Virus record (IMG/VR): IMGVR_UViG_3300045988_051146
Location: 1-6,808 of that record
DNA length: 6,808 nucleotides
Source of the DNA: a virus
Reading direction: 5' to 3' (one strand)
The notes beneath the pieces are model-generated. The model saw only the letters and a list, made by a program, of their open reading frames with translations. It searched no databases and had not been told where the DNA came from. Below are positions 1 to 6,808 of the stretch, piece by piece. Each line of letters opens with the position of its first letter. The stretch's first letter is position 1. The position numbers and the translations under genes are program-made.

Positions 1-80
1 CGTCCGTCAAAATCCTGCCTTTGTGCAAAACGGAGAAAATGTTGCAAAAACGGGTCAAATAGGCGATATCGTATCTCCAT
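1..80. repeat. Left arm of an 80-bp imperfect inverted repeat (partner 6729..6808)
   Basis: Positions 1..80 equal the reverse complement of 6729..6808 except at 56 (c vs t) and 76 (t vs c). Identity collapses at 81/6728. Positions 1..55 are perfect. The arm contains the sub-repeat TGCAAAA(A)CGG twice and a CGATATCG palindrome. Confidence 0.9.
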
Positions 81-87
81 CACAGAA

Positions 88-192
88 TCACAGAATCTGA
101 GACCAGATAGAATAAATCAGCAGCACCACAAGAGGAAAAACGACACCGAGCAGGAAAAGCACTCCGAGTAGTTTAGCAATTATTTTTAGCAT
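88..192 (-). CDS. 34-aa single-pass hydrophobic peptide (candidate lysis, exclusion or membrane peptide)
   Basis: Hand translation gives MLKIIAKLLGVLFLLGVVFPLVVLLIYSIWSQIL, with stop TGA at 90..88. AAGGAG lies 7 nt upstream of the ATG (192..190). A dedicated promoter sits about 45 nt upstream. The ORF is below the size cut-off of the supplied ORF track. Confidence 0.55.
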   Translation of the reverse strand: MLKIIAKLLGVLFLLGVVFPLVVLLIYSIWSQIL

Positions 193-236
193 TTATATAC
201 TCCTTTTATTTACGATAGTGCATACTTCTATTTATC

Positions 237-265
237 ATTTTAGCTTGTCGGAGTGCATACGTCAA
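237..265 (-). promoter_or_regulatory. Sigma-A/sigma-70-type promoter, TTGACG - 17 nt - TAAAAT, reading toward the 34-aa ORF
   Basis: The minus strand reads aggacTTGACGtatgcactccgacaagcTAAAATgataaa. The -35 is at 265..260, the spacer is 17 nt and the -10 is at 242..237. It is the only near-consensus promoter I can find in the phage module. It lies in the phage module's only sizeable intergenic region. Confidence 0.55.
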
Positions 266-325
266 GTCCTATTTCACTGCTCTAAACTCGCTAGCCGCGC
301 TCACGCTTGGCTGCGCTTGGTGTCA

Positions 326-389
326 CTCAGGCCCATTACATCAAGAGGTGTAATGGGCCTGAGATGCCCCCAAGCCTTTGCTTGGGGGC
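326..389 (-). terminator. Two tandem perfect GC-rich stem-loops just downstream of VP2: putative operon terminator and/or ssDNA complementary-strand origin
   Basis: Hairpin A has 10-bp arms at 366..375 and 380..389 with loop cttt. Hairpin B has 15-bp arms at 326..340 and 349..363 with an 8-nt loop. They begin 8 nt after the VP2 stop. No U-tract follows on the minus strand, so they are not classical intrinsic terminators. Confidence 0.4.
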
Positions 390-397
390 GAAGCTAA

Positions 398-1222
398 TCA
401 GAATTTACCATCATTTTTTAGATGAGTAAATCCACCGGAATTTACTCCGCCAAAAAGCCATCTATACCAATCAGAATTAGTAACGGCTTTTTTGACGTCA
501 CCGGAAGCAGACGAAAGCCAAGAAGAAATGGAATCAAAGAGAGACTTGCCGGAGGAACCAAGACCGGCAGAACCTTCATCACCGGAAACCATTTTCAAAA
601 GCTCACGAGCGAATCCCCAAGGACCGTTGGGATTCGCTATGTTCTGATCCGTTGCGTACTTACTCGCAGCATACGACATATTGGCGCCATACTTAGAAGC
701 ATCGGCGCCGATCTGAGCAACGAGCTTCTCCATAGCAGTGTACTTATCGGCAACTGCTTCCTGTGTACGTGCATTGACGTTTGCAGTTTGCAACTGGGTT
801 TGAGCAGAAAGCACCGATCCAAGCATTTGCACAAGAGCAGCATTAGCAGAGGTATCAACCTCACCTTTAGCACCAGCAGAGGTCACGCCGGAAGCGGTAG
901 CACCGGAGGTAACGGCAGCGCCGTTACCTCCCATAGCACTTAGAACCGGATTCAAACCGGCTGCCTTAAGATCACGAATCTCACGCTGGTGAGCAGTATT
1001 GCTCATGTATTCCTGCCAAGAACGGCTTTTAGCGGCCTCCTGAGCGTTAAATTGCATAACCAAGGCATTTTGACGCTCCTGCCAATCACGTTGCTCAGCG
1101 GCCAACTGTGCGCTCCTGGCGGTGTTTTCTGAAGCAGTCCGAGTGATACGAGAAAGAGCAGAATCCAAATTTCCAACAGCCGGCACACTCTGAACCTGAG
1201 CAGCATCCTTACCAGTAGTCAT
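398..1222 (-). CDS. Microviridae VP2-type minor capsid / DNA pilot protein
   Basis: The ORF encodes 274 aa. The block WQEYMSNTAHQREIRDLKAAGLNPVLSA is the conserved signature of gokushovirus VP2 proteins, and the rest is Gly/Ser/Ala-rich. GAGGTGA lies 4 nt upstream of the ATG. The gene sits directly after VP1. Confidence 0.85.
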   Translation of the reverse strand: MTTGKDAAQVQSVPAVGNLDSALSRITRTASENTARSAQLAAEQRDWQERQNALVMQFNAQEAAKSRSWQEYMSNTAHQREIRDLKAAGLNPVLSAMGGNGAAVTSGATASGVTSAGAKGEVDTSANAALVQMLGSVLSAQTQLQTANVNARTQEAVADKYTAMEKLVAQIGADASKYGANMSYAASKYATDQNIANPNGPWGFARELLKMVSGDEGSAGLGSSGKSLFDSISSWLSSASGDVKKAVTNSDWYRWLFGGVNSGGFTHLKNDGKF

Positions 1223-1233
1223 AAAATCACCTC

Positions 1234-2934
1234 TCAGTGATGGTCAATCAGACCAGGGATAGAGTACATCGGCATAGGACGTGTAGTACGGTTCTTGATA
1301 TAGATATCGGCAAAAAGCTGATTGCTGACGCTGGAAGTAACAGCAAGCACACGATCAACGTTTGTCTTATCCTCACGAATCCAAGAATCAGAGAGCATAG
1401 GCAGCGCGGAATAATCATCTGCAAGATGCCAAACGTCAAGAGACTGCGCGTACTGGGAACGCATCTCACCAGTTACACGAGAAGGCTTATAGCGATAATC
1501 AGCCCACGCTTCCTGATAGCCGAAAACCTGGTCATCAACGACAGCACCGGCAGAATCCTTAACGCCAGGGCCCTGCGCATAAATCTCCTTGTTTTTCACA
1601 GCCTGTTCGCCGATATTGGCGAAAACAGGCCAATAGTAGTCAAAGCGATCCTTACGAGACCAAAAACGTTCAAGACCCTGCTGATAAGTGTGATCATAAC
1701 GAGCGACCATAACGCCGATGACAAAACCATGCTCCGTGAAAGACTTGGTGAAATCGGAATGCGTATCGGTAGTGACAGACATACCAGTCACAGTACCTTG
1801 TGCAGTCTCGCCGGAGGCCGTAGCAGACTGCTGCACAACCTGATTGATATTAATGGGGACACGGTTGCCACCGAGATACTCGGGACGCTGAAGGCGGGCA
1901 TCCGGAGAAGTCACGCCAAAATGAGACTTGAGAATTTCGATATAGCGAGAACCGCCACGGGCATCTTTCTCATAAAGCTTCTGAATCTGGAACGCCATAC
2001 GAAGCTGATTGATCGAAGCACCGAGACCACCGGAAGAAACAGCATAAAGGTTAACAGGATCAAAACCGGGTTTTTCAGCAGAACCACCATAGCCAGTGAG
2101 ACCAGCATAATTGGAACCGGCAACAACAGGTGAAAAAGCCAGAGAATCATAAATATTAACCGGCCGATTACCAGCAGCAGGAAAAGAAACATTCGAAACA
2201 CCAGTCAAAACATATCCACCAGGATCATGAGGTTGCTCACGGGTAACAACAGGATATTCACCGGACGTAGCCGAGGGAATCAAAACATCCGGACCTTTCT
2301 GAGGGGACGGAAGACAACTCGTGAAATAATCATGATACTTGGCAGCCTTATAAGGAAGACCACCTTTCGCAACATCAGTAACAAACGTACCAGTATTGAC
2401 GCCGGCTACAGTAGCATCATCGACGGGAACAACGAGCGGGTCAGATAGATTTTCATCACGAAACCACTCATTCATCACCAGGGCATAAGCTCGGAAGGGA
2501 AGAGCACTAACGGAAAGATTAGGAACGCCAGTAGGGACACCGAAATAATCGGCAATAGTTCCAACAGACCATCCGCTATCAGCAGGAGCAGTAATCTGAG
2601 GAATTTCATACTCTGTCTGAGGAATCCAGGCAGATTCCGTATTCTCGCCGTTGAACTGCTTCCAATGAGACCAAGTAAGGCGGTTCGGTACGAAGAAGAA
2701 ATACGTGTCAAGGTAGATGTTGTCCATGACCGGAGTAAGCAGCGTCTGCAAACGCACAACCTTGGATGTGTCCACGTTGAACGTATCTCCCGGTAGTACT
2801 TCGTCAAGGAAAAAAGGAACAATGTCACCAACATTAAACGAAGTCTTAAGAGAATGCGAGCGGTCAAACGTCGAACGCCGGATATCAATGTTCGTGGGAT
2901 TAAGTGCGAAATGAGATTCAACATTGCGGTTCAT
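1234..2934 (-). CDS. Microviridae major capsid protein VP1 (F-like jelly-roll)
   Basis: The ORF encodes 566 aa. The N-terminal block RRSTFDRSHSLKTSFNVGDIVPFFLDEVLPGDTF is a hallmark of microvirus F/VP1 proteins, and the length is typical of gokushovirus-type VP1. The ATG overlaps the VP3 stop (ATGA). AAGGAGG lies 7 nt upstream. Confidence 0.95.
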   Translation of the reverse strand: MNRNVESHFALNPTNIDIRRSTFDRSHSLKTSFNVGDIVPFFLDEVLPGDTFNVDTSKVVRLQTLLTPVMDNIYLDTYFFFVPNRLTWSHWKQFNGENTESAWIPQTEYEIPQITAPADSGWSVGTIADYFGVPTGVPNLSVSALPFRAYALVMNEWFRDENLSDPLVVPVDDATVAGVNTGTFVTDVAKGGLPYKAAKYHDYFTSCLPSPQKGPDVLIPSATSGEYPVVTREQPHDPGGYVLTGVSNVSFPAAGNRPVNIYDSLAFSPVVAGSNYAGLTGYGGSAEKPGFDPVNLYAVSSGGLGASINQLRMAFQIQKLYEKDARGGSRYIEILKSHFGVTSPDARLQRPEYLGGNRVPININQVVQQSATASGETAQGTVTGMSVTTDTHSDFTKSFTEHGFVIGVMVARYDHTYQQGLERFWSRKDRFDYYWPVFANIGEQAVKNKEIYAQGPGVKDSAGAVVDDQVFGYQEAWADYRYKPSRVTGEMRSQYAQSLDVWHLADDYSALPMLSDSWIREDKTNVDRVLAVTSSVSNQLFADIYIKNRTTRPMPMYSIPGLIDHH

Positions 2935-3434
2935 TCCATAACCTCCTTTTTCGGCTCAACAGCCGGTTTTTCCTCCTGTGCGGGCGGGTCAGACTCTCGC
3001 TCGGGCTTAATTCCGAGCTTGTCGAGGAAATCAGGCTTGTCCATGCCGGCCATGAACTCCGCAAAGTTGTGGTTAAACTTTGCGCGAATATCGACCGGAA
3101 GAGAATTGAAAAAGCTCTGACCTTCATTGACCTTGTTCAAAAGGTCAGCATAGGTTGTAGGCATATTGGTGAAATCACCATAAGCGCCCTGGACACGCGA
3201 AAGCGCGTCAATGTCGCCGTTCTGATATCGAGCGAGAATCACGTGGATATCGACGGACTCGGCGTGCGATTGAATGAAATCGTAAAGGTCTTCTCGGCCA
3301 GACTCAACGAGATCCATAACTCCATTTTCATCAAACTTAGGCTGATAGAGAATCCGTTCGCGCTCACCAAGATTTGAAGGGAAACGAGTTCTCGGACGAT
3401 ACTGAGTAGCGAATCTAAGCTTTTCATCATACAT
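2931..3434 (-). CDS. Microviridae internal scaffolding protein VP3
   Basis: The ORF encodes 167 aa. The pattern YDFIQSHAESVDIHVILARYQNGDIDAL ... YGDFTNMP ... FNSLPVDIRAKFNHNFAEF matches the gokushovirus/Chlamydia-phage VP3 scaffold family. It has an acidic/Pro-rich C-terminal tail. It lies immediately upstream of VP1 and is translationally coupled to it. Confidence 0.8.
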   Translation of the reverse strand: MYDEKLRFATQYRPRTRFPSNLGERERILYQPKFDENGVMDLVESGREDLYDFIQSHAESVDIHVILARYQNGDIDALSRVQGAYGDFTNMPTTYADLLNKVNEGQSFFNSLPVDIRAKFNHNFAEFMAGMDKPDFLDKLGIKPERESDPPAQEEKPAVEPKKEVME

Positions 3435-3436
3435 GA

Positions 3437-3688
3437 TTACACATCCTTTCTCTGGATGGACGTACCATCCAAAATCACCTCGGGGAGCTGGGTGGAGATC
3501 GTGCCAGTCTCGTTATCAAACTCGCCGATCTTACAAAGAGCATAATCCTCAATGTGAGAAAACAGAAGACTCTCCTTCTGCATACAGGCATGAGCGAAAT
3601 TCCGCATAGCGGAAGAATCATTCTGGTCTACCGTAGGCGGGAGAAAGCCCGTACGAGCATCACGAATAGAGAAAACACCGTATTTCAT
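3437..3688 (-). CDS. Conserved small microvirus nonstructural protein (VP5/ORF5-like)
   Basis: The ORF encodes 83 aa. The pattern MKYGVFSIRDARTGFLPPT ... NDSSAMRNF ... EDYALCKIGEFDNETG resembles the roughly 80-90-aa protein widely conserved next to VP3/VP4 in gokushovirus-type genomes. Its stop lies 2 nt before the VP3 ATG. The function assignment is by recollection only. Confidence 0.6.
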   Translation of the reverse strand: MKYGVFSIRDARTGFLPPTVDQNDSSAMRNFAHACMQKESLLFSHIEDYALCKIGEFDNETGTISTQLPEVILDGTSIQRKDV

Positions 3689-3843
3689 TTCCTAAAAACC
3701 CTTTCAATTGAATTCATAAGTTGAAGAACATCGGGAACGCCCGAAAAATCCGAAGGATTGACACGAGAAGCCTCAATCAAAAAAGACTTCATCTCACGCC
3801 AACAGCGCATATAAAACATAGGATCATCATCAGAATATTTCAC
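3685..3843 (-). CDS. Small translationally coupled ORF (52 aa from GTG 3843, or 44 aa from ATG 3819), unknown function
   Basis: Hand translation gives (VKYSDDDP)MFYMRCWREMKSFLIEASRVNPSDFSGVPDVLQLMNSIERVFRK. Its stop overlaps the VP5-like ATG (ATGA). The GTG overlaps the stop of the J-like gene (GTGA) and has AGGAGG 9 nt upstream. It fills an otherwise empty gap in a tightly packed operon. Confidence 0.4.
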   Translation of the reverse strand: MKYSDDDPMFYMRCWREMKSFLIEASRVNPSDFSGVPDVLQLMNSIERVFRK

Positions 3844-3953
3844 AGTCGAATACCTCCTCTAAAAACAGTCGGGTTAATGTTGATCTTCTTGGACTTCGCA
3901 GCAGTACGACGAAAGACCTTCTTGTCTTTCTTGGGACGCATTTTCTTACGCAT
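3840..3953 (-). CDS. Small highly basic DNA-binding/packaging peptide (J / ORF8-like)
   Basis: Hand translation gives MRKKMRPKKDKKVFRRTAAKSKKININPTVFRGGIRL (37 aa). It is Lys/Arg-rich with the C-terminal RGGIRL ending typical of gokushovirus small basic proteins. The ATG overlaps the Rep stop (TAATG). AAAGGAG lies 9 nt upstream. Confidence 0.7.
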   Translation of the reverse strand: MRKKMRPKKDKKVFRRTAAKSKKININPTVFRGGIRL

Positions 3954-4966
3954 TAGATACAACTCCTTTTCAATGATTTTATTCGGGCCAGCTGGTTCCG
4001 TTCTTCAACGGCAAGCTGGTCTAAATAACTAAGTGTGGTTTTCTGTAATTTCGCTTTCTGAGCTTCAGCTGCCATCTTCTGACGAACAGCTTTAAGCCTG
4101 GCAGATTCTTCCGGACAATCGAGATCAAAGAGCTTGTCATAATACTTCGGAGGTCGAAACTTCCTTCCGCCTTTCTCAGTCGAAATGTTAATGAACTCGT
4201 GTTCATATAGGTCGGGATGATCCTCGTAATACTGCCGGGCAATACCGGGCTTGCGAGACATAAGCGAAAACTCAGGAACAATGTTGAAATTCTCGTAGAA
4301 CTCAGCTTCAGGGCCGGTGAGCTTCTTCATGACATAACGAGCAGTATAAGCGCAAGTCTCCCAGGTCACAGGAGCTACAACAGCAAAACCATTCGGCCAA
4401 ACTTCTTGAAGGGACGCAGAATTGAAGTATTGAAAACCTTGAGCAGATCGCTTGTAAGGAACAAGGTCATGGAGTTCCAATCCAAAAATGATTGCATGAT
4501 AATGAGGGCGGAACGTCTGAGAACCATACTCACCAGAAGCAAAGAAGCGAATACCTTCGCCGAACTTCTTCCGGAGACGCTTCATAAAAAGCTGAAAATC
4601 ACGCTTCACGAGGGACATACTCGGCAGGGCCTCGCCGGTCTCCGGATCGGAATAGTAATGAATAGGAACGTGAGCATCATCATAAGTAAGCGTTACGAAG
4701 TAGCTGGACTTATGATATTCAAGCTCCAACATACAACGGTTAGCCCATTCACGGGAACGCTGGAGACGACAGCCGGAACACTTACCACAAGGAATCTCAA
4801 TAAACTCCGTAACGTCACCAGGACGACCAATAGGCGGACTTCGCATACACGCAAAGCCTTCACCAGCGCGCTCGAGATGGTCTACCTCATAGCTCGTTAC
4901 CTTGAGCAACCGTTTACCATCTTTTTCGCCTAAAACAAAGGCTTTCAGCGGATGATAACAGGGCAA
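3953..4966 (-). CDS. Microviridae replication initiator VP4 (HUH rolling-circle endonuclease, gpA-like)
   Basis: This is the frame of track ORF 3953..5200. Motifs are FVTLTYDD (motif 1), RPHYHAIIFG (HUH), YTARYVMKK (two-Tyr motif as in phiX174 gpA) and a CGKCSGC Cys cluster. The first roughly 64-78 codons of the 415-aa ORF are Arg/Pro-rich read-through of GC-rich iteron DNA. I place the start at TTG 4966..4964, with GAAGGTGAT 3 nt upstream, giving MPCYHPLKAF. The alternative is ATG 5008..5006, which has no SD and lies inside a hairpin. Confidence 0.9.
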   Translation of the reverse strand: MPCYHPLKAFVLGEKDGKRLLKVTSYEVDHLERAGEGFACMRSPPIGRPGDVTEFIEIPCGKCSGCRLQRSREWANRCMLELEYHKSSYFVTLTYDDAHVPIHYYSDPETGEALPSMSLVKRDFQLFMKRLRKKFGEGIRFFASGEYGSQTFRPHYHAIIFGLELHDLVPYKRSAQGFQYFNSASLQEVWPNGFAVVAPVTWETCAYTARYVMKKLTGPEAEFYENFNIVPEFSLMSRKPGIARQYYEDHPDLYEHEFINISTEKGGRKFRPPKYYDKLFDLDCPEESARLKAVRQKMAAEAQKAKLQKTTLSYLDQLAVEERNQLARIKSLKRSCI

Positions 4967-4980
4967 GAAATCACCTTCTT

Positions 4981-5007
4981 TGTATGGGGATATCGTACCC
5001 CCATACA
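4981..5007. repeat. 9-bp-stem hairpin containing the third copy of the 19-bp core, at the phage/GC-rich junction
   Basis: The arms are tgtatgggg (4981..4989) and ccccataca (4999..5007), with a 9-nt loop atatcgtac. The minus strand at 5004..4986, ATGGGGGTACGATATCCCC, matches 6729..6747 at 17/19 positions and 80..62 at 16/19. Confidence 0.75.
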
Positions 5008-5041
5008 TTTTGGGAAATTTCAAAAATTTTCGCAGCAATGG

Positions 5042-5160
5042 CAGGCGTTTCGGGGATCGGCGCGAAAAAATGGGTAGACGAAAGGGTAGACGGCGGCCTC
5101 TCCGGAAAACCCGCAAACCCTTGCGCCCCAGGCGTTTCGGCGGGTAGACATCGGGTAGAC
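5042..5160 (+). repeat. Iteron cluster: two pairs of direct GGGTAGAC repeats, each pair preceded by CAGGCGTTTCGG (a fifth copy lies at 5287..5294)
   Basis: GGGTAGAC occurs at 5072..5079, 5084..5091, 5142..5149, 5153..5160 and 5287..5294, all in the same orientation. Spacing within pairs is 12 and 11 bp. The 12-mer CAGGCGTTTCGG occurs at 5042..5053 and 5129..5140. Confidence 0.85.
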
Positions 5161-5212
5161 ATGGACGGTTTTGGGGCAGGCTGCCCGTCAAATGCAACAA
5201 AATCCGACGCTT

Positions 5213-5239
5213 TTAGCACTCTTAGAGCGAGAGTGCTAA
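5213..5239. promoter_or_regulatory. CIRCE element (HrcA operator), perfect consensus
   Basis: The sequence is TTAGCACTC (5213..5221), then 9 nt (ttagagcga), then GAGTGCTAA (5231..5239). This is an exact match to the canonical TTAGCACTC-N9-GAGTGCTAA inverted repeat. It lies 129 nt upstream of the hsp20 ATG. I could not place the cognate promoter confidently; the weak candidate is TTCACA 5253..5258 / CACAAT 5277..5282. Confidence 0.85.
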
Positions 5240-5367
5240 AATTCATAGTCTGTTCACACAAATGCGTATCTTTGGACACAATTCCGGGGTAGACTCTGAG
5301 TCAAGAAAAGCAAAGGAAGGCAAGCTCCCGAGGCTTTCCAAATCTCGAATTTTCGGAGGTATTCATT

Positions 5368-5808
5368 ATGTTTGAACTGAGACCTTACCGCAACAATAAC
5401 CACATGACCACCTATGACCCGTTCCGCGACATGGAGGCGCTGGAGCGCGCGTTCTTCGGCAACCGCGACTTCCTCGGCGACGTCGGCACGTTCAAGACCG
5501 ACATTCAGGACAAGGGCGACCATTACCTGCTCGAGGCCGATCTGCCCGGCATGAAGAAGGAGGACATTGCCATCGACATCGACGGCGACAACCTGACCAT
5601 CAAGGCCGAGCGCAGGAACGAGCACGAGGAGAAGGACAAGAGCTACGTCCGCTGCGAGCGCAGCTACGGCAGCTACGCGAGGAGCTTCGATATCTCCGGC
5701 ATCAAGGCCGAGGGCATCAAGGCCAGCTACAACGACGGCGTGCTGAGCCTGACGCTGCCGAAGAAGGACGTCGAGGTCTCCGGCAGCCGGAGACTGGCGA
5801 TCGAGTGA
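5368..5808 (+). CDS. hsp20: Small heat-shock protein, Hsp20/alpha-crystallin family (Clostridial Hsp18-like)
   Basis: The ORF encodes 146 aa. The alpha-crystallin domain pattern is DIQDKGDHYLLEADLPGMKKEDIAIDIDGDNLTIKAERR ... YVRCERSYGSYARSFDISGI ... ASYNDGVLSLTLPKK. GGAGGT lies 7 nt upstream of the ATG. The strongly GC3-biased codon usage is unlike the phage genes. Confidence 0.92.
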   Translation: MFELRPYRNNNHMTTYDPFRDMEALERAFFGNRDFLGDVGTFKTDIQDKGDHYLLEADLPGMKKEDIAIDIDGDNLTIKAERRNEHEEKDKSYVRCERSYGSYARSFDISGIKAEGIKASYNDGVLSLTLPKKDVEVSGSRRLAIE

Positions 5809-5812
5809 GATC

Positions 5813-5909
5813 TGCCGCCTGAGGGCGGCACGACATTTGCCGCCTGACGGCGGCGCCACATTTGCCGCTTGACAGCGGCGCCACATTTGCCGCCTGACGG
5901 CGGCACGAC
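5813..5909 (+). repeat. 3.9 tandem copies of a 25-nt unit, each carrying a 6-bp GC hairpin, in the hsp20 3' region
   Basis: Units occupy 5813..5837, 5838..5862, 5863..5887 and 5888..5909 (the last partial). The unit is TGCCGCCTGACGGCGGC(G/A)C(C/G)ACATT. Unit 3 carries a compensatory pair change (GCCGCT...AGCGGC) that preserves the stem. Confidence 0.85.
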
Positions 5910-5948
5910 CAAAGGGGCCATTCTCTACCGTAGAGAATGACCCCTTTG
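5910..5948 (+). terminator. Long stem-loop, putative hsp20 terminator
   Basis: The arms are caaaggggccattctcta (5910..5927) and tagagaatgacccctttg (5931..5948), forming 18 bp with one C/A mismatch and a 3-nt loop. If the stem is taken as GGGGCC.../...GACCCC it is followed by only TTTG, a weak U-tract. Confidence 0.4.
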
Positions 5949-6389
5949 AAACCCCAAGAGAGCGCAAGGGGCTTTTCCACCGTCGCGGCACAGCGATTCC
6001 CGCGCCTCTTCGGGCGCGCCAATCGCGCCGCTTCCTCGAAACCGCCTCGCTTTTTCCGCCACCGGCGGCGCTTCGGCGCTTTCCCCTTGACCCCCGAACT
6101 GCGGCGGTCAAATCACCGTTCAGCAACCGTATGAGAGTGCGGCGGCGCGGCTTTCGATCTGGCCTGCTTCTCTTTCCGCTCAGCCGCTGCTGCGGTGCTG
6201 GTACGAGCTGCTGTTAAAAATTTCTTCCGAAACCCCACCGCAGAGCGGCAGCGGCCGCAAGGAGCAAGCCAAATCGAAAGCGGCAATAAGAAACTGCACG
6301 CACTCCTTTGCGCAGCGCGTGCAGCATCAGCCTTGCAGAGGCGGGCAATGGCAGGTCAAGGGCGCAGCCCTTGCGGTCTTGGGGAATCG

Positions 6390-6426
6390 AAAGGGGGCCA
6401 TTCTTCCGCTAAGAATGGCCCTCTTT
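6390..6426. repeat. Second member of the GGGGCCATTCT...AGAATGGCCC hairpin family (terminator-like)
   Basis: The arms are aaagggggccattctt (6390..6405) and aagaatggccctcttt (6411..6426), forming 16 bp with one G-U pair and loop ccgct. The arm sequence is closely related to the 5910..5948 hairpin. No credible gene ends here on either strand. Confidence 0.35.
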
Positions 6427-6528
6427 CCTTATGTGCCGCGCGCTCTGCGGCGGGGTGAGGGGCACGTTGCCGTTTGCCGTGCAACAAAAGGCCCCTGTGT
6501 GCCCCTCATTTAGAATCACTCGCTGCGG

Positions 6529-6565
6529 TGTAACAAAAATACAGGAATGTTACAGGTGAGTTACA
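6529..6565 (+). promoter_or_regulatory. Operator-like TGTAACA / TGTTACA inverted repeat plus an extra GTTACA, upstream of the 6581 promoter
   Basis: TGTAACA is at 6529..6535 and TGTTACA at 6548..6554, its exact reverse complement with a 12-nt spacer. A further GTTACA at 6560..6565 is 11 bp from the previous copy. The cluster ends 15 nt before the -35. Confidence 0.3.
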
Positions 6566-6580
6566 AATCGGCCAAAGCGG

Positions 6581-6609
6581 TTGACGGGCGGGAAAGCCGG
6601 GTGTAATAT
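6581..6609 (+). promoter_or_regulatory. Sigma-A/sigma-70-type promoter TTGACG - 17 nt - TAATAT, firing outward toward the right inverted repeat
   Basis: The -35 TTGACG is at 6581..6586, the spacer ggcgggaaagccgggtg is 17 nt, and the -10 TAATAT is at 6604..6609. The -35 and spacer length are the same as in the minus-strand promoter at 265..237. Confidence 0.55.
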
Positions 6610-6659
6610 GAGCATGCAATTGATGGTGGGCCAAGGTGAGTTCCCGGTTCAGTTACGGG

Positions 6660-6735
6660 AACGGCATGCCACGGTAAGTGGATCGAGAAACACCCAAAAA
6701 CACCTGATTTTGCAATACAAATCCGCGAATGGGGA
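6660..6735 (+). ncRNA. Candidate cis-regulatory leader; the 3' half resembles the THI-box of a TPP riboswitch (tentative)
   Basis: The region GAGAAACACCC-aaaaa-CACCUGAU-UUUG(caaua)CAAA-uccGCG-aaUGGGGA (6685..6735) parallels E. coli thiM GAGAAAUACCC-guau-CACCUGAU-CUGG(auaau)CCAG-CG-uAGGGAA. A P3-like hairpin CCAC-ggtaa-GTGG lies at 6669..6681. However, the near-invariant CUGAGA reads UCGAGA, and I cannot build convincing P1/P2 helices. Confidence 0.25.
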
Positions 6736-6808
6736 TACGATATCGCCTATTTAACCCGTTTTTGCAACATTTTCTCCGTTTTGCACAAAGGCAGGATTTT
6801 GACGGACG
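6729..6808. repeat. Right arm of the 80-bp imperfect inverted repeat (partner 1..80)
   Basis: It is the reverse complement of 1..80 with mismatches at 6753 and 6733. The inner 19 nt (6729..6747, ATGGGGATACGATATCGCC) are the core that recurs at 5004..4986. Confidence 0.9.

Follow-up and report, generated by a model that had tools for sequence, protein, structure and literature searches.

Integrase-less gokushoviruses of enterobacteria integrate at dif by means of two recombinases of the host, XerC and XerD, and the motif carried by the phage is sometimes located in the N-terminus of VP4 (PMC7062461). Integration by the same XerCD route at a dif-like target was proposed for the Bacteroidetes microvirus proviruses BMV1-7 (PMC3091885), and by 2022 only two isolates of Bacillota, belonging to Erysipelatoclostridium and Mammaliicoccus, had been reported to carry microvirus prophages (PMC9239249). 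Here, the virus record IMGVR_UViG_3300045988_051146 of IMG/VR was analysed over positions 1 to 6,808, and this whole stretch of 6,808 nucleotides is called the window. The window is very probably one edge of a de Bruijn graph with k = 55 from a human-gut-type metagenome, ending inside the arms of an inverted repeat of Oscillibacter and enclosing a host spacer with a small heat-shock protein gene (hsp20) and an integrated gokushovirus.

The interior of the window, whose nature the initial annotation had left unrecognised, is a microvirus prophage together with the host hsp20. The viral part comprises the following features.

81 to 4985, minus strand: integrated gokushovirus (Microviridae) genome, a unit of 4.9 kb identified with Pfam
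88 to 192, minus strand: small membrane-like open reading frame (ORF) of 34 codons, from the six-frame ORFs
398 to 1222, minus strand: VP2-like pilot protein
1234 to 2934, minus strand: VP1 capsid protein (Pfam Phage_F, 4e-165)
2931 to 3434, minus strand: VP3 scaffold protein (Pfam Chlamy_scaf, 8e-40)
3437 to 3688, minus strand: ORF5/VP5 (Pfam Phage_ORF5, 1e-22)
3953 to about 4963, minus strand: VP4 Rep (Pfam REP_ORF2-G2P, 8e-18), containing YTARYVMKK

The gene set of the Gokushovirinae type (VP1, VP3, VP5 and VP4 Rep in a genome of 4-6 kb) is therefore present in the window, and YTARYVMKK in Rep is the paired-tyrosine motif of phiX174 protein A. In the phage part, where all six-frame ORFs were accounted for, neither an integrase-sized ORF nor a Pfam match to a recombinase was found. 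The closest deposited phage is the circular Microvirus sp. OP549876.1 (5050 nt, about 90% identical), which matches only positions 87-5007 of the window; at the base level it corresponds to window 81-4985 plus one copy of a 19-nt core, GGGGATATCGTATCCCCAT. The circular relatives in IMG/VR, to which the phage part is likewise about 90% identical, never reach outside window 62-5008, and the lineage occurs in human, pig and primate samples.

The unoccupied site was found in a cultured bacterium. A 26-mer of the arm matched the genome of an isolate, Oscillibacter sp. MSJ-31, which belongs to the Oscillospiraceae (Clostridia), and the excerpt L015 of this genome contains the empty locus in the order S-layer-homology (SLH) gene, left arm, 1765 nt with segment X, hsp20 and segment Y, right arm and second SLH gene. 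Window 4986-6456 corresponds to L015 4217-5635, and window 1-80 to L015 4156-4235. In general, the arms of an unoccupied host locus are separated by 1.5-1.8 kb (1468-1683 nt in the human-gut contigs that span it), which hold X, hsp20, hairpin repeats and Y in this order. The host spacer with hsp20 in the window (1.7 kb, 5005-6728) and the first SLH gene of the isolate have the following features.

5005 to 5162, unstranded: host segment X, which always flanks the occupied attachment site; equals L015 4236-4393
5368 to 5808, plus strand: host small heat-shock protein gene of the Hsp20 family (Pfam HSP20, 5.5e-23)
5813 to 5906, unstranded: 3.8 copies of a 25-nt tandem unit, each with a GCCGCC-TGAC-GGCGGC hairpin, directly after the hsp20 stop (whole family 5785-5934)
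6521 to 6728, unstranded: host segment Y, which holds a promoter-like site at 6581-6609 facing the right-hand SLH gene
L015 1145 to 4042, minus strand: first SLH gene of MSJ-31, 965 aa

Three copies of the 19-bp core are present in the window.

62 to 80, unstranded: core copy 1 (GGCGATATCGTATCTCCAT), at the junction of the phage tail with the host sequence upstream of the SLH gene; a direct repeat of 4986-5004
4986 to 5004, unstranded: core copy 2 (GGGGATATCGTACCCCCAT), at the junction of segment X with the rep side of the phage
6729 to 6747, unstranded: core copy 3 (ATGGGGATACGATATCGCC), unoccupied, in the opposite orientation to copies 1 and 2

The match of the window with L015 and the single core in the free phage indicate that the phage is a precise insertion at the 19-bp core. 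A 4.9-kb temperate gokushovirus has inserted at the core on the X side and duplicated it, a step regarded here as established. The marks of a site-specific prophage were all found, namely an empty site in MSJ-31, a core at both ends and one core in the free phage. The phage-host junction at 62-80 was also present in 13 related IMG/VR contigs (L001-L013).

All related contigs with a rep-side junction (33 contigs and the window) were included in a junction census. The free circular arrangement, in which the phage tail ...TGTG is followed by ATGGGGA and TACGATATCCCC, was found in 12 contigs; the integrated arrangement, ...GAAATTTCCGAAAATGT followed by ATGGGGG and TACGATATCCCC, was found in 21 contigs and the window, all of them adjoining X. 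Seven further integrated examples from the metagenome set also adjoined X. Since none of the 29 integrated contigs carried the phage at a Y-type site, recognition must reach beyond the core into X. Free and integrated forms were both present in sample 3300045988.

Two variable positions of the core locate the crossover. Position 7 is usually G, the host state, at the X-side junction and A, the phage state, at the SLH-upstream junction; of 13 free forms, 12 have A here. At position 17, the X-side junction carries the C of the phage, and the second junction carries the G of the host. These states place the crossover within TACGATATC. The phage attachment site (attP) is a 21-nt palindrome, ATGGGGATA-CGA-TATCCCCAT, about 20 nt upstream of rep, which can be read either as ATGGGGA-TACGATA-TCCCCAT with 7-bp inverted arms and a 7-bp spacer, or as a stem of 9 bp closed by the loop CGA. 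In single-stranded form, attP folds into a hairpin of -10 kcal/mol (z = -4.4), whereas the host sites (attB) are unfolded. An earlier placing of attP within the rep coding region was revised. The mechanically called Rep ORF reaches a TTG at 5200 in host DNA and has an in-frame ATG at 5005 supplied by the host; judged from the sequence, the likely Rep start is the TTG at 4963 (minus strand), with the ribosome-binding site AAGGTG and the N-terminus MPCYHPL..., which puts attP about 20 nt upstream. In the circular phage, rep is preceded by other phage sequence, from which it is cut off on integration.

The core is not unique in the host. Together with its upstream module it occurs in three copies in MSJ-31 (two in L015 and one in excerpt L016) and in three copies in contig L013, each upstream of an SLH gene. 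With at least three copies per host genome, it cannot be the single chromosomal dif. A third locus with X, core, upstream module and SLH gene lies about 7.5 kb from the first (L013 14274-14503; L016 3373-3610). Contig L007 has the phage joined to the flank of this third SLH locus (L007 1-938), and insertion is thus not confined to a single place in the chromosome. The motif used by XerCD/dif elements is 28 bp long and consists of an 11-bp XerC arm, a 6-bp spacer that contains the crossover and an 11-bp XerD arm. The sequence ATTTCCGAAAA TGTATG, with which X ends, may resemble the XerC arm and spacer of Firmicutes; the next 11 nt appear unlike the arm for XerD, and the crossover is located more to the right, in TACGATATC. 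No tRNA was detected in the window with ARAGORN and no credible Rfam family in a scan at E <= 1, so the attachment site is not a tRNA or known RNA gene.

Compared with the EC6098-type gokushovirus prophages (PMC7062461), the same five core genes, the lack of an integrase and the short direct repeats of a site shared with the host were observed, and in both cases the phage site is at or next to the 5' end of VP4 and free and integrated forms coexist. In contrast, the host here belongs to the Clostridia (Oscillibacter), each genome has three or more copies of the site, upstream of SLH genes, instead of a single dif, and the crossover in TACGATATC, flanked by ATGGGGA/TCCCCAT, does not fall in a 6-bp dif spacer. 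BMV1-7 (PMC3091885) are likewise small integrase-less gut proviruses delimited by an empty site and direct repeats (13 bp there, 19 bp here), but they belong to an Alpavirinae-like subfamily and have another host phylum and a dif-like target. As in the XerCD/dif elements (IMEX), no integrase is encoded by the element; unlike in that class, the target is not the unique chromosomal dif. Because the site is multi-copy and is not dif, the one mechanism demonstrated for this virus family cannot explain the integration. In full-text literature searches, no report of a microvirus prophage in Oscillibacter or Oscillospiraceae was found. While the inverted repeat itself is ordinary, the phage host and the non-dif, multi-copy attachment site of an integrase-less microvirus are moderately novel, a modest but genuine advance. 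With this locus, the gokushovirus lineage gains a host genus that is in culture (Oscillibacter, Oscillospiraceae) and an attachment site defined to the base.

The ends of the window are explained by the host repeat, whose arms are as follows.

1 to 80, minus strand: left arm, the inner 80 nt upstream of a leftward SLH-domain gene that runs off the contig
1 to 61 and 62 to 80, minus strand: make-up of the left arm, host sequence followed by the core; equals L015 4156-4235 of MSJ-31
6729 to 6808, plus strand: right arm, the inner 80 nt upstream of a rightward SLH gene; equals L015 6001-6080

The initial annotation had described positions 1-80 as the reverse complement of 6729-6808 with two mismatches and an abrupt loss of identity at 81, and a repeat scan, direct reading and end-against-end comparison reproduced this in full: 78 of 80 positions match (98% complementary), the mismatches are at 56 and 76, and identity is gone from 81 inward. 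A match of this kind exactly at both termini cannot be due to chance. On both sides the 80-nt repeat ends precisely at the inner edge of the 19-bp core, and the non-dif site thus doubles as the exact inner boundary of the host repeat.

The perfect part of 55 nt had been ascribed to the k-mer length of the assembler, and this holds. In a de Bruijn graph, an edge that starts and ends at one vertex read in opposite directions has ends extending exactly k past the outermost difference between the copies. When metagenome contigs were scanned with a 26-mer of hsp20, 77 human-gut contigs were returned, many of them SPAdes 'NODE' records. Among these contigs, L091 (6676 nt, 80-nt inverted arms) and L085 (6596 nt, 84-nt inverted arms) are two independent SPAdes contigs shaped like the window, and L085 has its first mismatch at another position of the repeat than the window does. 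In the window, L091 and L085 alike, the first end-against-end mismatch is nucleotide 56, and this three-fold recurrence is the signature of an assembler with k = 55. The free circular phage contig L034 of the same family has a 55-nt direct terminal repeat. Arms identical over at least 55 nt blocked the assembler there, also a step taken as established, and a contig blocked in an identical stretch stops 55 nt beyond the outermost arm difference. In comparison with other de Bruijn contigs bounded by a k-length inverted overlap, which are often mis-scored as viruses complete with inverted terminal repeats, the same perfect identity equal to k and the same unique path between inverted copies were observed and nothing essential differs; here the inner 25 nt of imperfect identity stop at the phage attachment core.

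The repeat was also predicted to continue outside the window, and it does so in the relatives, where the flanks do not diverge at once. The terminal 55-mer of the window is present in 13 IMG/VR contigs (L001-L013). Two of these, L006 and L013, share the gene order of the window but extend beyond it, with inverted arms that, bounded only by the contig ends, measure at least 278 nt at 98% (L006 1-278 / 6795-7072) and at least 401 nt (L013 1-401 / 6848-7249). In the MSJ-31 isolate genome the arms are 673 nt long and 90% complementary (L015 3563-4235 / 6001-6673), and in the spanning human-gut contigs L056, L061, L081 and L096 they reach 901-952 nt at 91-94%. Outward from the arm, L006 and L013 contain an ORF of 929-938 aa with a signal peptide and SLH domains, and the right arm of L006 runs on into the gene for the 938-aa protein. 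Overall, the SLH proteins whose start is encoded by the arm are 929-965 aa long, with PF00395 matches of 1e-15 to 2e-26. Among the candidates offered earlier for the flanking copies, paralogous genes therefore proved right, since the arms belong to two divergent SLH-domain genes. Each arm is the conserved 5' module of an SLH gene (19-bp core, about 175 nt upstream sequence, signal peptide and SLH domains), and the two paralogs diverge from each other with arms of 673-952 nt at 90-94% identity.

Two other explanations of the ends were considered. The ends might be true terminal inverted repeats of a 6.8-kb transposon, composite transposon, linear phage or plasmid with hsp20 as cargo, and the inverted termini together with a viral gene set would lead automated pipelines to score the contig as complete. 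This is very improbable, because longer contigs and the isolate chromosome read through both 'ends' into SLH genes, the end position follows k = 55 rather than a fixed sequence, and Pfam detected neither a transposase nor a protein-primed polymerase in the window; moreover, microviruses are circular, and the free relatives are 4.9-5.05 kb without hsp20. The earlier candidate of insertion sequence copies forming a composite transposon is not supported, as all ORFs in the window and the examined flanks were accounted for without a transposase, and transposon or insertion sequence ends were ruled out by this lack together with the host sequence running through the ends. The other possibility is a chimeric fold-back from amplification or assembly with no counterpart in any genome. 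Multiple displacement amplification, frequent in datasets of single-stranded DNA phages, does yield inverted chimeras, but the same inverted layout is found in a cultured isolate genome and in dozens of independent human-gut assemblies, and the two arms differ at two positions, so that the chance of such an artefact is close to nil. The earlier statement that no simple fold-back is involved is upheld by the same isolate genome and assemblies.

The consequence for virus catalogues is practical. Automated checks would accept the contig as a whole microvirus of 6.8 kb that has inverted terminal repeats and carries hsp20 as an 'auxiliary gene', while it is actually a 4.9-kb phage plus a host hsp20. 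The rule that two ends perfectly identical over a length of k betray a cut repeat provides a cheap filter. The reading of hsp20 as phage cargo was ruled out by a GC content of 63% at hsp20 against about 47% in the viral part (58-65% across about 5400-6600) and by its phage-free presence in the isolate (L015 4599-5039) and in about 70 gut contigs.

For the host segment around hsp20, loci with rearranging S-layer genes are the nearest parallels, namely the invertible sap region of Campylobacter fetus and the slpA/slpB inversion of Lactobacillus acidophilus. Like them, the locus described here has two opposed surface-layer paralogs whose 5' regions are conserved, with a segment of a few kb between them and alleles found on either side; it differs in that SLH-domain proteins are encoded and that inversion and the single promoter are putative. 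In Clostridioides difficile, the tyrosine recombinase RecV flips the cwpV switch although its gene lies at another place in the genome (PMC2784873). Both that switch and the present locus have a short inverted site upstream of a cell-wall or surface gene of Clostridia, and in neither case need the recombinase be nearby; the cwpV element measures 195 bp with 21-bp repeats and lies between a promoter and a single gene, whereas the cores here are 1.7 kb apart and embedded in long homologous arms.

To compare the flanks, SLH gene sequences beyond the arms were clustered at >=93% identity, which gave 27 allele clusters among 63 flanks. The following clusters were found on both sides of the hsp20 segment.

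Cluster A1: X side in 8 contigs, Y side in 15 contigs
Cluster A2: X side in 4 contigs, Y side in 2 contigs
Cluster A3: X side in 2 contigs, Y side in 3 contigs
Cluster A4: X side in 1 contig, Y side in 2 contigs
Cluster A6: X side in 1 contig, Y side in 1 contig

Relative to given genes at its flanks, the hsp20 segment thus appears to be oriented differently among gut samples, and the earlier suggestion of an invertible segment is plausible to this extent. Judged by these population data, the long arms probably permit inversion of the segment or exchange of SLH cassettes among paralogs. Among the arms of cluster A1 (n = 23), core position 7 alone is linked to the side, a pattern that would fit core exchange and homologous exchange with gene conversion alike.

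The promoters at this locus were examined with a consensus scan. The initial annotation had proposed a pair of outward-firing promoters, one behind each arm; both hexamer pairs exist, but they are not a matched pair, since the left one is phage DNA and the right one alone belongs to the host.

237 to 265, minus strand: TTGACG-17-TAAAAT (10/12), in the phage upstream of the small ORF; the same sequence is in the free phage L014
6581 to 6609, plus strand: TTGACG-17-TAATAT (9/12), in host segment Y; conserved in MSJ-31 at L015 5853-5881

The window has 9 promoter-like sites compared with 5.2 +/- 2.5 in shuffles, so such sites are weak evidence alone. In the circular phage, the left site would precede the small ORF and then rep, while in the prophage it would face the host SLH gene, with rep left behind X. 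In a scan with a weak consensus, no promoter site was found inside the arms or facing outward in X. A single promoter switching between both SLH genes is possible, as far as the sequence can indicate.

With regard to how the phage integrates, the proposed step is that a host-encoded site-specific recombinase of the tyrosine type would exchange the strands, by analogy with XerCD/dif in other temperate microviruses. Capture of such a host recombinase is, by a modest degree of confidence above even, the most likely route. No recombinase was found in the flanks examined, nor among the genes flanking the third SLH locus (cytidine deaminase-like, polysaccharide deacetylase-like and others). Alternatively, the phage's own two-tyrosine HUH Rep might integrate the genome by nicking the attP hairpin and a look-alike host sequence and joining the strands, and the flanking core copies would later let Rep release a unit-length single-stranded DNA circle. 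The phage encodes no integrase, its Rep carries YTARYVMKK, the paired-tyrosine motif of phiX174 protein A, attP forms a strong hairpin beside rep, and the crossover interval TACGATATC has G|ATAT, which resembles the nick context of the phiX origin. Against this, the host site forms no hairpin, and the exclusive use of X-type sites, though the core is also at Y-type sites, argues for a longer duplex recognition site; self-integration by Rep also has no known precedent in Microviridae, where host XerCD is the demonstrated route for integrase-less gokushoviruses (PMC7062461). Integration by Rep is the main alternative, though considered unlikely.

An origin of the site in the host itself was also considered. 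The 19-bp core could be the site of a host non-Xer recombinase that ordinarily flips or shuffles the hsp20/promoter segment among SLH cassettes and so brings about phase variation of the surface, with a widespread integrase-less gokushovirus of the gut having copied this site as attP and thereby become able to lysogenise Oscillibacter; this is a rather improbable proposal. If true, this would be the first microvirus known to hijack host recombination other than XerCD/dif, with lysogeny tied to cell-surface genes. In its programmed form, a host recombinase acting on the two inverted cores would flip the promoter of Y between the SLH paralogs, and the phage would borrow both recombinase and site. 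Several observations favour such a switch: the core is the exact limit of the host repeat at either end, even at Y, where the phage was never seen; only Y holds a promoter-like site, and the arms are free of them; some SLH alleles are shared between the two sides of the segment; position 7 alone is side-linked among 23 arms of one allele; and the 7-bp inverted arms and 7-bp spacer of attP are a layout typical of tyrosine recombinase sites. However, arms of 0.7-0.9 kb are long enough for inversion by RecA, with no need of a dedicated site; gene conversion between the arms would likewise restrict side-specificity to the outermost position, the promoter scan relies on a weak match to the consensus, the flanks examined hold no recombinase gene, and both orientations were never seen within one sample. 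A programmed switch is given a low probability as well.

The overall reading of an assembly edge enclosing a gokushovirus prophage and the hsp20 spacer is preferred, and the following points weigh against it. The mechanism of integration is itself inferred, and the identical outward continuation of the window's own arms is extrapolated from relatives about 90-99% identical. The orientation pattern rests on short-read contigs that cross a 0.9-kb repeat, where misjoins could mimic it; a single isolate genome (MSJ-31) is available and has one orientation; and among the clustered contigs no exactly reciprocal pair, with the same two SLH alleles swapped, was found.

In addition to the attachment site, the SLH genes of this locus have the look of cassettes, in which the 5' and 3' modules are conserved and the middle varies greatly. 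An array of this kind, its middles shuffled, is a candidate for a system that varies the cell surface of an anaerobe abundant in the gut. A sequence named D forms an outer inverted repeat of 217-224 nt at 93% downstream of both SLH genes (L061 79-302 / 9221-9444; L096 85-301 / 8911-9127). In L015 the D module is at 122-801, and D-like sequence also follows the third SLH paralog. The use of D as a unique outer marker of orientation was dropped, as it follows several SLH paralogs and itself forms the outer inverted repeat. In contigs L054, L069, L077, L094 and L065 (1195-1552), D-like sequence stands directly before X in place of the arm and the SLH gene, an arrangement that points to loss of an entire SLH cassette, perhaps at the core.

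Segment X is also present at the third SLH locus (L016, L017, L013 14274-14431). It has four GGGTAGAC motifs within 5060-5162, two of which form an exact 11-nt tandem, CGGGTAGACAT, at 5141-5162, and these motifs may be binding sites for a regulator or an accessory protein of recombination. The distance from hsp20 to Y ranges from 386 to 754 nt among contigs, and the stretch of hairpin repeats is thus length-polymorphic.

Within the phage, the region between ORF5 and rep (window about 3690-3838) is unalignable between the window and its relatives, and in this variable region the related prophage in L013 has a 63-nt tandem duplication at 3083-3208 with 94% identity. A perfect 15-bp stem (326-340 / 349-363, within 315-375) lies between VP2 and the small ORF and is kept in the free phage; its probable role is that of a terminator or of a structural element in the single-stranded DNA genome of the phage.

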